Shown piece by piece: positions 3,001 through 64,000 of a DNA stretch of 64,000 bases. The DNA comes from Eledone cirrhosa (lineage: Eukaryota). The stretch covers positions 375,100,001 through 375,164,000 of the forward strand of contig OZ024743.1 of NCBI GenBank assembly GCA_964016885.1, written 5' to 3'. Made by a program: the position numbers and the translations under genes. How positions within the stretch are numbered: position 1 is the stretch's first letter; each line of letters begins with the position of its first letter. Below the pieces are notes generated by a model. It worked only from the letters and a program-made list of their open reading frames with translations, did no database searches and was not told the origin of the DNA.

Positions 3001-3749
3001 AGGGAAGGAGTGGTGAAAGAGTGACAGTGGCAGGTATAGAGTGTGACAGTGGGGAGAGTGACAGTAACAGAGACAGACAGAGAGGGAAGGAGTGGTGAAA
3101 GAGTGACAGTGGCATGTATAGAGAGTGCAACAGTGGGGAGAGTGACAGTAACAGAGACAGACAGAGAGGTAAGGAGTGTTGAAAGAGTGACAGTGGCAGG
3201 TATAGAGATAGTGACAATGCCGAGAGTGGCAGTAACAGAGACAGACAGCGAGGGAAGGAGTGGTGGAAGAGTGAGACTTGCAGGTATAGAGAGTGTGACA
3301 GTGGGGAGAGTGACAGTAACAGAGACAGACAGAGAGGGAAAGAGTGGTGAAAGAGTGACAGTGGCAGGTATAGAGAGTGTGACAGTGGGGAGAGTGACAG
3401 TAACAGAGACAGACAGAGAGGGAAGGGGTGGTGAAAGAGTGACAGTGGGGAGAGTGATAGTAACAGAGACAGACAGAGAGGGAAGGAGTGGTGAAAGAGT
3501 GACACTTGCAGGTATAGAGAGTGTGACAGTGGGGAGAGTGACAGTAACAGAGACAGACAGAGAGGGAAAGAGTGGTGAAAGAGTGACAGTGGAAGGTATA
3601 GAGAGAGTGACACAGGGGAGAGTGACAGTAACAGAGACAGACAGAGAGAGAGGGAGTGGTGAAAGAGTGACAGTGGCAGGTATAGAGAGTGTGACAGTGG
3701 GGAGAGTGACAGTAACAGAGACAGACAGAGAGAGAGAGAGAGTGGTGAA

Positions 3750-58648: not shown

Positions 58649-58699
58649 TACTTTCGCAATCTTCAGGTTAATAATATGAACCTGAAGATTGCGAAAGTA
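58649..58699. repeat. Perfect 21-bp inverted repeat with a 9-nt spacer
   Basis: TACTTTCGCAATCTTCAGGTT (58649-58669) and AACCTGAAGATTGCGAAAGTA (58679-58699). Confidence 0.95.
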
Positions 58700-58719
58700 T
58701 GAAAGTACTTGTTCAATTA
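58672..58719 (+). ncRNA. Minimal type I hammerhead ribozyme motif (family H1)
   Basis: Stem I TGAAC/GTTCA (extendable TAAT/ATTA past a one-base bulge), core CTGAAGA, stem II t-TGC-GAAA-GTA-t, core GAAA, palindromic GTAC, then TT. Predicted cleavage after 58710 (CUU). Confidence 0.75.
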
Positions 58720-58867
58720 ACACTTAGAATTTAATATTCTATCATACTATTTCATTATAATACCATTATAAATTTTAAAGGATTGTAAATAAAACGAGTA
58801 AATCAAAGTTGGAATTCCTCTTATTAATATAATCTTCTATACACAATCATACACACCCGTGTATATT

Positions 58868-59054
<187 letters not shown>

Positions 59055-59303
59055 TGTAAGTATGCATGTATACTACGTACATACATATATGTATACAGAC
59101 GTACAGTAGCATGCACATATATATATATATATATATATACATATATATATACATATGCATACAGGTACACATACATATATGCACGTATCAGTTTAGCGGC
59201 GCTAACGTCGCTTTGTTCGTTTGTAAACAAACTGAACAGCCTGAATTTATGCCATACGGTGTTAAGGCAACCACGTCACCTTTTTGTTCAACACTGACAA
59301 AGG

Positions 59304-59348
59304 AACGATGTACTAGTTTCAAGCTTGTTAGCTATCATCAGCACCGTT
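59304..59348 (-). ncRNA. Minimal type I hammerhead ribozyme motif (H2 copy A)
   Basis: Minus strand reads AACGGTG CTGATGA t AGCT AACA AGCT t GAAA CTAG TA CATCGTT: 7-bp stem I, intact core, 4-bp stem II, palindromic stem III, GUA cleavage triplet. Confidence 0.85.
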
Positions 59349-59769
59349 TACCCATCTGCCAGATAGTTGAACGTTCGAAAGTATAAACTTTCCTTATGAA
59401 AATTAACGGCTGAGCAGCCTAATTTGCATATTGAGTGAGTTAAATCGGTCAGGCATACCGAAAACGATAAATTGAAACAAAATGAAAACGAAATTTCATT
59501 TCTCACTCTTAGTATGGCACTTACTTAAATGTAAGTATGCATGTATACGTACATACATATATGTATACAGACGTACAGTATCATGCACATATATATATAT
59601 ATATACATATATATATACATATGCATACAGGTACACATACATATATGCACGTATCAGTTTAGCGGCGCTAACGTCGCTTTGTTCGTTTGTAAACAAACTG
59701 AACAGCCTGAATTTATGCCATACGGTGTTAAGGCAACCACGTCACCTTTTTGTTCAACACTGACACAGG

Positions 59770-59814
59770 AACGATGTACTAGTTTCAAGCTTGTTAGCTA
59801 TCATCAGCACCGTT
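59770..59814 (-). ncRNA. Minimal type I hammerhead ribozyme motif (H2 copy B)
   Basis: Identical 45-nt motif to copy A. Confidence 0.85.
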
Positions 59815-59840
59815 TACCCATCTGCCAGATAGTTGACATT

Positions 59841-60072
59841 TACTTTCGAACGTTCAACTATCTGGCAGATGGGTAAACGGTGCTGATGATAGCTAACAAG
59901 CTTGAAACTAGTACATCGTTCCTGTGTCAGTGTTGAACAAAAAGGTGACGTGGTTGCCTTAACACCGTATGGCATAAATTCAGGCTGTTCAGTTTGTTTA
60001 CAAACGAACAAAGCGACGTTAGCGCCGCTAAACTGATACGTGCATATATGTATGTGTACCTGTATGCATATG

Positions 60073-60103
<31 letters not shown>

Positions 60104-60222
60104 GTGCATGCTACTGTACGTCTGTATACATATATGTATGTACGTATACATGCATACTTACATTTAAGTAAGTGCCATACTAAGAGTGAGAAATGAAATT
60201 TCGTTTTCATTTTGTTTCAATT

Positions 60223-60225
<3 letters not shown>
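59841..60225 (+). mobile_element. H2 copy C, inverted relative to copy B (about 370-bp-arm palindrome 59467-60225)
   Basis: 59854-60225 is the reverse complement of 59467-59836 apart from one substitution and TA-run length. The spacer is 17 nt and the copy ends in (TA)n. Confidence 0.85.
59876..59920 (+). ncRNA. Minimal type I hammerhead ribozyme motif (H2 copy C)
   Basis: AACGGTGCTGATGATAGCTAACAAGCTTGAAACTAGTACATCGTT on the + strand. Predicted cleavage after 59913. Confidence 0.85.
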
Positions 60226-60255
<30 letters not shown>

Positions 60256-60322
60256 GTATATATATATGTATATATATGTGTATATATATGTGTATATATA
60301 TGTGTATATATATATATATATA

Positions 60323-60362
<40 letters not shown>

Positions 60363-60400
60363 TATACATATATATATATACACATATATATACATATATA
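60226..60400. repeat. Degenerate (TA)n microsatellite
   Basis: TA runs with scattered G/C. Confidence 0.95.
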
Positions 60401-60592
60401 TTGAAGACTAAAATCCAAAGAGTGGGTGAAAGCAGCGATTCTTTGCTTAAACTTTAATCTGTTATTTTAATAAATAAATATATATATATATATGGCCTTT
60501 ATAACTTATGTTTATTGCTTTGGACTTTTTTAGCCCATAGAATTTGCGTTACGTTTCGCTTTTTCTACCCGCCGAAATGCGATTCTCGCTGA

Positions 60593-60650
<58 letters not shown>

Positions 60651-60653
<3 letters not shown>

Positions 60654-61049
60654 GGAAAAATGAAACGAAATTTCATTTCACACTCTTAGTATGGCTGTTA
60701 CTTAAATATAAGTATGTATACGTACATACATATATGTATACAGACGTACAGTAGTATGTATATATATATACATACATATATATATGTACGTATGGATTCA
60801 CCGAACATTTATTATAATGCTCGGTGTGTTTGTAAACAAACATACCGTATTTAGCCGTAGTGTCCAGCAACCATCGTTGCTCGTTTGTTCAACACTGACA
60901 AAGGAACGCTGTACTAGTTTCAAGCTTATTAGCTATCGTCAGTAACGTATACCTTCCTGCCAGATTGTTGAACGTATATACTTACCTTATGCACATTAAC
61001 GGCTGAGTAGCCCAATTTGCATATCGGTGGGTTAATCGGCCGGGTGCAT
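60651..61049 (-). mobile_element. H2 copy D, diverged subfamily member
   Basis: Colinear similarity to A/B (GAAACGAAATTTCATTTC-CACTCTTAGTATGGC, TGTTCAACACTGACAAAGGAACG, ATTAACGGCTGAG-AGCC-AATTTGCATAT). The 3' end abuts (TA)n at 60592-60650. Confidence 0.8.
60905..60949 (-). ncRNA. Minimal type I hammerhead motif (H2 copy D; closing pair of stem I mismatched)
   Basis: Minus strand reads TACGTTA CTGACGA t AGCT AATA AGCT t GAAA CTAG TA CAGCGTT. Confidence 0.7.
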
Positions 61050-61236: not shown

Positions 61237-61467
61237 TTAGACACACACAGATACATGCGGACACACACATATACATGAATGCATCCGCACCCAACCGTGA
61301 GTTAAGGGTGCCAACTTCACCGATGTTGCTCAATGAATGACTGGGACAGACCAATCCGGTTGAACCAGACTGAACCAGTATCAGAGTTAAAAATACATTA
61401 TGAAGAGAGAAGAAACATTTAGATATAATTAGTCATAAAATGTATCATACCTAAACTGCTCCTAGAT

Positions 61468-61557
61468 TCCTCGACTACGTAGTTTCGTGGCATAAACAAA
61501 AACAATACATCATAAAGATATAGAGTCCTTGCGAGGTCTGCCGACTTATCAAGAGGA
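61468..61557 (-). ncRNA. Type I hammerhead motif, U3-A8 core variant (H3 left arm)
   Basis: Reverse complement of the 62005-62094 motif. Confidence 0.68.
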
Positions 61558-62004
61558 TACCTCATTTTACTAGTCTCAAGAACGCGTCTACACGACGTGA
61601 GAAAGAATCCCAAAAGGCGGAGGGGGAGATAGTCACGCGATATAACGGTCGAGAAACAGAGTTAAGCCTCCTATAACCCCGAAGAAAATACCACGGAGGC
61701 GGAGGGGGTATTTATATCGAAGCCGTTTCTAAATATATTGTTAATAACTCCCTCTGGTCGAGCAATCTTTGAAGTGTGAGGACTGCTGGAAAGCTTCCAT
61801 TACTCATACTTCTCGTCTCCTTCACCACCTCTTCTACGGTTTCGATATAAATACCCCCTCCGCCTCCGTGGTATTTTCTTCGGGGTTATAGGAGGCTTAG
61901 CTCTGTTTCTCGACCGTTATATCGCGTGACTATCTCCCCCTCCGCCTTTTGGGATTCTTTCTCACGTCGTGTAGACGCGTTCTTGAGACTAGTAAAATGA
62001 GGTA

Positions 62005-62094
62005 TCCTCTTGATAAGTCGGCAGACCTCGCAAGGACTCTATATCTTTATGATGTATTGTTTTTGTTTATGCCACGAAACTACGTAGTCGAGGA
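62005..62094 (+). ncRNA. Type I hammerhead motif, U3-A8 core variant with a long stem-loop II (H3 right arm)
   Basis: Stem I TCCTC/GAGGA, core TTGATAA, stem II GT(c)GGCA...TGCCAC, GAAA, palindromic CTACGTAG, then TC. GUC cleavage predicted after 62089. Confidence 0.68.
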
Positions 62095-62163
62095 ATCTAG
62101 GAGCAGTTTAGGTATGATACATTTTATTACTAATTATATCTAAATGTTTCTTCTCTCTTCATA

Positions 62164-62165
<2 letters not shown>

Positions 62166-62218
<53 letters not shown>

Positions 62219-62860: not shown

Positions 62861-64000
62861 CTTTCTTTTTATTTGCCACCAGGGCATCAAAAAGTGGGAC
62901 ATGTACAAAGGGGGGAGTTTACATAAAAAGGCGTCCTCAATAAGGAGGAGGCTATAACAAAATATAAAAATAATATAAAATATAACAAAATAAATTTTAT
63001 AACAAAATCCTCAATAGGGAGGAGGCGCCTTGGGGGGGTCGCACACAACCCCGAAAAAAAGTGTGCAACCCTTCTCCTCAGGAGCACAGAGAGGGGGTGC
63101 TCCCTTGATCTTTCATCTTCCTCACCTATAGTCTGATGTAGAGTGAAGGCCCATTCACACGGGCCATTCTCGCCACTTTCACCCATCTTTCATAAAAACG
63201 GCTGGGGTGCAGCACCTCTCTCTCCATCCTGATCCTTCTTCCGAAATGATATCGGAAGAAACGGACCAGTTGTTGGCCAGAGAGAAAGGTGTCTGACCTC
63301 AGTCCTTTCAGACGCGTCCACCATACAACCTCTTTCGCCATGGCTATTACGCACAGAAACACAGCCTCTCCTTCGTTTTTGAAGAGGGGAGGCGGCTTGA
63401 TCGTTACAATAGACTCGGTGGTCAACCGGATCGGTCCCACCCTTGACAGCAGTTGTTCGACATAGCCCCACAGATCGGCAATGCCCGAGCAGTGTACCAA
63501 TGCGTGTGCAACGGTTTCCTCGTCGCACACGCATCTGGGACAGATCTTTTTCGAGGAATCCTTACCCGGGCGCCCGTGTCTGTAGAGCCTTTCTCGAACG
63601 AGCAGAGCCCCTCGGTAGCATTGCCAGGCCAGGGACATCTGCAAGTTATCCATGGGTCCCGGGCTGAATGTCTTACCGAACAGGTTGGCCAGTTCCTCTT
63701 CCTCCATGCCTAGGGCTTCTCCGAGGGCATCATCGCACCTGCTAACCACCAGCCCTCTATAGAATGACGAGGTGGATTCTCCACTGACAGCCGGGTCCGC
63801 CTGCCAGAGAGCCGTGAGCGCCTGGGCACACTCGGTGTGCCAGGCGCCCTGTTTTCTCGGTCTTTGCTTGACCCAGGATTGCAGCTCGGTGAGCGAGACG
63901 AGTCTGGGAAAGGCTCGCCTTACAAACGGGGCCCACACCGGTTGACCGGTGAGGAATACCTGGAGGTGCCGTAGCCTTAATGCGTGTTTACGTATCATTA
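62861..64000 (-). mobile_element. 3' portion of a non-LTR retrotransposon (L1/Tx1-like LINE), truncated by the window edge
   Basis: ORF2-like C-terminus followed by a ~260-bp 3' UTR with a T-rich stretch. AATAAA (minus strand, 62873-62868) merges into an A-rich tail AAAAGAAAG. Confidence 0.82.
63126..64000 (-). CDS. LINE ORF2 C-terminal region with a zf-RVT-type zinc-binding motif (partial; open at the window edge)
   Basis: 290 stop-free codons of normal complexity. LAWQCYRGALLVRERL...CPRC..DEETVAHALVHC...LW and the later AKEVVWWTR match the W..H..L.T...CxxC...ET..H...C and K..IW..R pattern of L1/Tx1 ORF2. The Met at 63998 is probably internal. Confidence 0.82.
   Translation of the reverse strand, partial: MIRKHALRLRHLQVFLTGQPVWAPFVRRAFPRLVSLTELQSWVKQRPRKQGAWHTECAQALTALWQADPAVSGESTSSFYRGLVVSRCDDALGEALGMEEEELANLFGKTFSPGPMDNLQMSLAWQCYRGALLVRERLYRHGRPGKDSSKKICPRCVCDEETVAHALVHCSGIADLWGYVEQLLSRVGPIRLTTESIVTIKPPPLFKNEGEAVFLCVIAMAKEVVWWTRLKGLRSDTFLSGQQLVRFFRYHFGRRIRMEREVLHPSRFYERWVKVARMARVNGPSLYIRL

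Follow-up and report, generated by a model that had tools for sequence, protein, structure and literature searches.

Animal non-LTR retrozymes, as described by Cervera and de la Pena (2020, PMC7229834) and by Li, Clavereau and Pollet (2026, 10.64898/2026.07.22.740005), are short, AT-rich units repeated in tandem, each with a type I hammerhead ribozyme; they lack LTR-type features, are predicted to form self-paired circles and co-exist with Penelope-like elements (PLEs). RNA circles have been shown for the retrozymes of coral, mussel and axolotl, and double-hammerhead activity is reported for newt and axolotl motifs (PMC7229834). Of nine Xenopus dimers, only one was cleaved in vitro (10.64898/2026.07.22.740005). 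The mobilization of retrozymes by PLEs and the copying of circles over several laps are proposals already in the literature.

PLE insertions have an anatomy of their own. Those of EN+ PLEs display partial tandems, an inverted 5'-truncated arm, a tail at one end, microsatellite targets and a hammerhead upstream of the end points (PMC8557442, PMC3846280, PMC11167929, PMC4209133), the first two of these sources describing both the one-sided tail of inverted insertions and the targeting of microsatellites. With a PLE tested in vitro, the tail corresponds to the stretch between two internal reverse-transcription start sites, these sites are alike on both strands, and cleavage is dispensable for insertion (PMC11167929); the last two results count against the reading given below.

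The stretch analyzed here, 64,000 nt from the 3.0-Gb genome of Eledone cirrhosa and hereafter called the window, consists almost wholly of simple and tandem repeats. Our reading, to which we assign a probability of about 0.8, is that three copies of a 466-nt hammerhead repeat in it form one young insertion of what is likely a non-LTR retrozyme, copied by a PLE reverse transcriptase (RT)-endonuclease, likely from circular RNA. Judged on its sequence, the element is an animal non-LTR retrozyme in the sense of the published descriptions (10.64898/2026.07.22.740005, PMC7229834), with a unit just above the 150–450 bp given in PMC7229834 and within the 51–972 bp of 10.64898/2026.07.22.740005; like those elements it shows no LTR-type features and shares its genome with PLEs. 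A preliminary description had already proposed a retrozyme, and the tandem type I hammerhead units, the short, AT-rich, non-coding unit and the dispersed copies all support that proposal.

One insertion of three copies

The three copies, A, B and C, make up one insertion with a (TA)n-type target tract on each side (58941–59054 on the left, 60226–60401 on the right); the (TA)n is degenerate and would mask any target-site duplication. On the minus strand, copy B (59055–59466) covers unit positions 1 to ~403, and its "short", untailed 3' end adjoins (TA)n; copy A (59467–59836), 5'-truncated and head-to-tail with copy B, covers unit positions 97–466. The inverted arm, copy C (59841–60225, plus strand), spans unit positions 84–466 and has a "long", tailed 3' end that likewise adjoins (TA)n. 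The arms meet head-to-head at 4 nt (59837–59840) that match neither of them. Copy C differs from copy A by one substitution and a 2-nt indel, and the 759-bp palindrome at 59467–60225 is 97.65% self-complementary.

Two identical hammerheads 466 nt apart on one strand had been recognized beforehand, and they are indeed present on the minus strand, with cores at 59807–59777 (copy A) and 59341–59311 (copy B); the predicted cuts after GUA at 59777 and 59311 (59777/59776 and 59311/59310) follow from these core coordinates. That count of two holds for the minus strand but missed a third intact copy, core C, enclosed by the palindrome on the plus strand at 59883–59913 with a predicted cut after 59913. 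All three cores are 31 nt long and identical in sequence, and the flanks of cores A and B differ by one base, just 3' of stem I.

From cut to cut, the unit at 59311–59776 (minus strand) is complete at 466 nt, as had been claimed, and its A-to-B junction is one that recurs 70 times across the 45 best-hit loci of the genome. It is predicted to be highly self-paired: its circular fold reaches –149.9 kcal/mol (z –9.2), or z –4.4 without the AT-rich self-complementary hairpin at 59540–59655 (minus strand), which contains unstable (TA)n. The unit is AT-rich and holds no recognizable gene, its ATG frames (93 and 103 codons) running antisense only, through low-complexity sequence. Unlike EN+ PLEs it has no RT or GIY-YIG frame, and no open reading frame for RT plus GIY-YIG between pLTRs, the mark of an autonomous PLE, was found in the 466 nt. 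Between the short and long end points lies an internal "tail" of ~60 nt (59467–59530, minus strand); the same tail stands at the outer end of arm C (60162–60225, plus strand), and the outer end of arm B is without it.

Near the unit start is the octamer ATGCAAAT (59422–59429, minus strand), present in 88 of 94 upstream blocks of the retrozyme family and in 24 of 24 of a sister family. We regard it as a possible promoter element; it may parallel the snRNA-type promoter that newt satellite 2 presumably carries, a literature search on that octamer promoter having turned up nothing usable. Copy A lacks the first 96 nt of the unit and hence the octamer segment.

Release of a 466-nt unit by read-through of this locus, as the preliminary description envisaged, is not supported by its anatomy: the antisense of copy C would be transcribed first, and copy A is predicted to be locked in a long hairpin. 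The predicted cost of forming the double-hammerhead fold is 48–368 kcal/mol for transcripts starting at 59900–60225, as against 4–11 kcal/mol for starts at 59836–59860. Going by these folding models, the locus is more probably a product than a source, and its tandem is best read as a reverse-transcription footprint, one of many, 16 of 67 sampled insertions having more than one hammerhead on the same strand.

The (TA)n zone around the locus is a nest of PLE-type insertions. At 58649–58870 lies a PLE 3' end of a coding family (that of loci L077 and L078), with a hammerhead-like motif (58682–58707, plus strand) and a short inverted arm. The retrozyme family has an older single copy, ~75% identical overall, at 60651–61046 (minus strand), with its core at 60942–60912, a long end at (TA)n and a mismatched first pair in stem I. 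Further on, at 61388–62174, another repeat family is represented by an inverted repeat of 339 bp (98%), whose left arm extends further than its right; each arm has GAAA-CUACGUAG-UC with UUGAUAA upstream, possibly a hammerhead variant with a long stem II to judge by these motifs. At 62900–64000 (minus strand) lies what seems, by eye, to be the broken 3' part of a LINE-type element, and similar sequence flanks L078 and L087. Most of the window is taken up by an 84-bp satellite (~311 copies) and an 18-bp G/T-rich array (~1,585 copies), at 1–26056 and 29571–58221.

The hammerhead and its family

The core runs CUGAUGA, stem II, GAAA, CUAG, UA, and so contains the elements of a type I hammerhead (CUGANGA, GAAA and UH, with stems I–III). 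In stem I, 6 bp are accompanied by a 3-nt bulge and additional helices; stem II pairs over 4 bp, with U-U at the base and AAYA as its loop; helix III consists of a single A-U pair closed by the palindrome CUAG, stem III as a whole being the palindrome ACUAGU. The preliminary description had called the motif minimal, which is apt for helix III only: its 6-bp stem I, bulge and further helices set the motif apart from what counts as minimal among PLEs, whose minimal hammerhead has no such full, bulged stem I. The bulge starts with U, and a pyrimidine fills the variable loop place in 88 of 90 cores; bulge and AAYA loop agree with what we take to be the consensus for the contact between loop 1 and loop 2. 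The single base pair and palindromic tetraloop of helix III are as in axolotl HHR_Amex1, and the U-U at the base of stem II is as in HHR_Amex2; axolotl motifs that share these weaknesses cut poorly by themselves but well when dimeric (PMC7229834). Newt satellite 2, too, has a weak palindromic helix III that needs a double hammerhead (PMC7229834, PMC6155905), but the window family, unlike it, forms dispersed short arrays with PLE-type ends.

The Rfam scan of the window returned no match at gathering thresholds, so the motif is called a hammerhead on the strength of its core sequence and of covariation. Among the 90 cores of the 45 best-hit loci, the catalytic core is retained in 77, ACTAGT in 87 and the U-U at the stem II base in 86, and what variation there is falls chiefly on N7 and one loop pyrimidine. 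In a position-ordered sample (all clusters of the first 100 matches listed, contig C1, 62 regions), 104 of 116 cores are intact, a figure to be read in the light of a selection pattern that itself includes half the core. Covariation was assessed on 16 hand-picked sequences, 14 of the 70 distinct ones and two from the sister family (one of them among the 70). Here 8 of 21 pairs are altered on both sides, a number reached by 2 of 500 shuffles, and 92% of cells pair; this is supportive rather than a probability, since the two sister sequences and a single stem I position account for most of the changes, and the window copy served as the model for the structure. A 27-mer across the predicted cut has 14,804 exact matches genome-wide and its reversed control none, and together with the compensatory changes in stems I and II this excludes a chance hammerhead.

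For the 567-nt dimer, the double hammerhead folds at –181.6 kcal/mol, two single hammerheads at –170.8 and the free minimum at –185.8. The suggestion that the two motifs could pair as a double hammerhead thus gains support from prediction, the double fold being 10.8 kcal/mol stabler than two singles and 4.2 above the free minimum, in which the core is predicted to be drawn into pairs in a shifted register. Self-cutting is a prediction from core conservation, covariation and folding, against which the shifted register and the U-U at the stem II base count.

Because the 27-mer has so many exact matches, the family is not an assembly artefact; with older subfamilies added to those matches, it comprises ~15,000 or more dispersed copies. 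The position-ordered sample holds 67 insertions, of which 37 are head-to-head pairs and 30 are single arms; the 16 with at least two same-strand hammerheads reach up to nine units, and the window itself has two consecutive units, each with a complete type I hammerhead, at least two such units being what defines a non-LTR retrozyme tandem. Sequence difference averages 2.1% within arrays versus 6.5% between loci (28 loci given), and young arrays of 4–7 units differ by 0–0.4%. The window copies stand ~0.2% from the four nearest other loci, and by this measure the insertion is young and of a very young subfamily.

The sister family (L010:2130-3018, L015:1-390, L124–L143) has a 466–467-nt unit that is 64% identical (299/466) to that of the window, a G-C at the base of stem II, GUC or GUU as the cut triplet, and copies 98–100% alike. 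It has the same octamer, hairpin and long and short ends as the window family. In its insertion L010, ~55 bp of flanking DNA is present in inverted form on both sides (2084–2140 and 3040–3090).

Insertion ends and the link to PLEs

The insertions end at two fixed internal points ~60 nt apart and not at the ribozyme cut. Of 104 arm 3' ends, 48 are long (unit positions 445–466), 43 short (385–415, mostly 401–407), 13 other and none at the cut, and most adjoin (TA)n. Where both ends of an inverted pair can be called (30 of the 37 pairs sampled, an end being uncallable in the other seven), one arm is long and one short in 30 of 30 (p ~1e-9, position-ordered sample). The sister family shows the same in six of six distinct pairs, and the best-hit loci, read by eye, give 16 long/short pairs alongside one short/short (L012) and one seemingly long/long (L052). 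The window obeys this one-tail rule, with B short and C long. Past the tail, the sequence enters the next unit in 70 of 104 cases, ends at TA tracts in 25 and does something else in nine (one of these being a locus edge); a tail running into an open reading frame was not seen among the 104.

In four of the 30 pairs neither arm contains the other, which implies that both arms were copied from a template, and the longer arm may be of either type (14 versus 16). Twelve of 104 5' ends fall within unit positions 446–459, a T-rich 14 nt just before the long end point, where ~3 are expected; microhomology could account for this excess, or else stalling at the place taken up by the other primer or the protein. 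Unit position 97 was considered as a start site on account of a 5'-end pile-up in the best-hit loci, and was dropped when the position-ordered sample did not bear this out.

A PLE-mobilized element is recognized by an incomplete tandem, a second arm that is inverted and 5'-truncated, a tail on just one side and a microsatellite target; the insertion has all of these, its hammerheads lie upstream of the end points, and one tailed plus one untailed end is the PLE "tail" signature, which three coding PLE families of this genome share. The tail is ~60 nt here, versus 30–40 nt in the PLE papers and 40–66 nt in the coding families of this genome. Non-autonomous Chlamys elements such as MRC1 (PMC8557442) are similar in being non-coding and inserted in multicopy, head-to-tail form by PLE machinery; unlike the window element, those of the MRC1 type have a 3' end like that of an autonomous family, and canonical hammerheads are described as missing from most Chlamys.

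The genome has 10,597 GIY-YIG candidates. Three coding PLE families, identified by RT and GIY-YIG matches (the RT match lying just below the Pfam cut-off for three of four proteins), likewise have two end points and mostly (TA)n flanks. One of these, comprising L074 (G000:C1:145869500-145877500), L075, L079, L082 and L087, has between two hammerheads an open frame of 938 aa with RT and GIY-YIG, found in L074; its hammerhead variant has U3, A8 and a palindromic ACCGGU helix III, and its tail of ~66 nt leads straight into the start of the open reading frame. In 40 GIY-YIG loci of the 10,597 candidates, blastn with seven unit segments found no DNA similarity between the unit and a coding PLE, and a match to the unit at L087 was rejected as a sign of partnership, the match being a separate neighboring insertion. 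The end regions are no more similar to the ends of the three PLE families than chance would give (9 of 300 shuffles in the best of nine tests). The partner PLE is one that we infer, since none of the PLEs sampled has DNA sequence in common with the unit. In the published texts, co-occurrence and pLTR homology are what ties retrozymes to PLEs; here it is the footprint of insertion that does so, no homologous pLTR having been found among the sampled loci.

The template and what the reading would mean

A 17-mer after the cut has 16,130 matches; extended by 10 nt across the cut it keeps 14,804 (91.8%), and by 10 nt downstream 14,890 (92.3%). Only 2 of 104 5' ends lie within 8 nt of the cut, in a sample chosen on an intact cut. 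The copies do not start at the cut, as those of cut linear monomers would, and the template should accordingly be either a ligated circle or an uncut multimer. We lean towards the circle, which ribozyme conservation and the homogeneity of the arrays favor. That the same element and PLE enzyme instead used an uncut linear multimer from existing arrays, circles being rare or irrelevant, we consider doubtful but worth serious attention: the absence of a step at the cut is equally expected of it, both helix III and the base of stem II are weak, and uncut RNA was the dominant substrate of an anole PLE in vitro (PMC11167929), a result that favors the multimer. It accounts less well for the near-identity of long young arrays, or for a core and stems that persist, through compensatory changes, in families sharing just 64% identity and so point to selection on cleavage, and retrozyme circles are on record in other animals. 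The 3'-most units of the two arms have no common private variants in seven of eight loci and three in the remaining one, which counts slightly against a multimer in what is a nearly uninformative test.

The other alternatives concern the arms and the unit itself. That the inverted arm arose by snap-back self-priming and not as a second target-primed cDNA appears improbable to us. Self-priming on an antisense template has been proposed for PLE palindromes (PMC3846280), and 26 of the 30 pairs were not called non-nested, yet the four non-nested pairs and the finding that either arm may be the longer disfavor a simple snap-back, as does the fact that the two arms each terminate at a fixed point beside a (TA)n tract of their own. 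Still less probable is that the unit is only the pseudo-LTR of a coding PLE yet to be found and the tandem an ordinary truncated insertion. PLEs do insert with this anatomy (PMC8557442, PMC3846280) and just 40 PLE loci were examined, but the sequence past the tail enters the next unit or ends and, in the 104 cases, was not seen to enter an open reading frame, where in the coding family of L074 it enters one directly, and the arrays extend to nine same-strand units. A satellite-like local duplication or assembly artefact with a decayed or chance hammerhead hardly merits credence, and for the family it is already largely refuted. The window is nearly all simple repeats, and none of the contigs listed for the four runs compared covers the whole stretch; against this stand dispersed copies with fixed ends, the strict long/short rule, covariation and the recurrent A–B junction, which contigs from two other studies span.

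Those contigs (470 and 486 nt, one each from runs X4 and X5, which carry other-organism labels) cross the unit junction within 59170–59534 of the window with 2–3 differences, and neighboring high-copy repeats have none. A unit-length molecule present in the absence of the genome, e.g. a carried-over abundant RNA, would look like this; the kind of run is not on record.

Returning to PLE-mediated copying of a circle, we picture the following course. Some multimeric loci would be transcribed, two motifs would pair through ACUAGU into a double hammerhead and cut, and the monomer would be ligated into a circle. A PLE protein would then nick both strands of a (TA)n target and begin one cDNA at each internal site; the cDNAs would continue past the hammerhead, for up to several laps, and their far ends would be joined head-to-head. 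In the window, one cDNA would be 782 nt (A + B) and the other 385 nt (C). More tentatively, and at somewhat less than even odds, the protein may be a dimer that nicks both target strands and is obliged to begin one cDNA at either site, the sites being ~60 nt apart and both cDNAs rolling round a single circle.

If that dimeric arrangement is true, the one-tail rule, the non-nested arms and the lack of a stop at the cut would be genomic proof that PLEs mobilize hammerhead circles, and the PLE tail and inverted arm would be explained together. The conserved octamer would in turn mean that the circle precursor promotes itself. We found no paper with the tail and inverted-arm footprint on a retrozyme, though supplements may show it; the words "inverted" and "tail" are absent from the main text of PMC7229834. 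PLE mobilization of retrozymes has been a published hypothesis from co-occurrence and homology, and the window family offers a direct view of the PLE insertion footprint, many times over. The window locus itself is an ordinary copy. A very young subfamily beside PLEs with long open frames nonetheless makes a ready system in which to ask whether a PLE enzyme copies the circle, and why there is exactly one tail.
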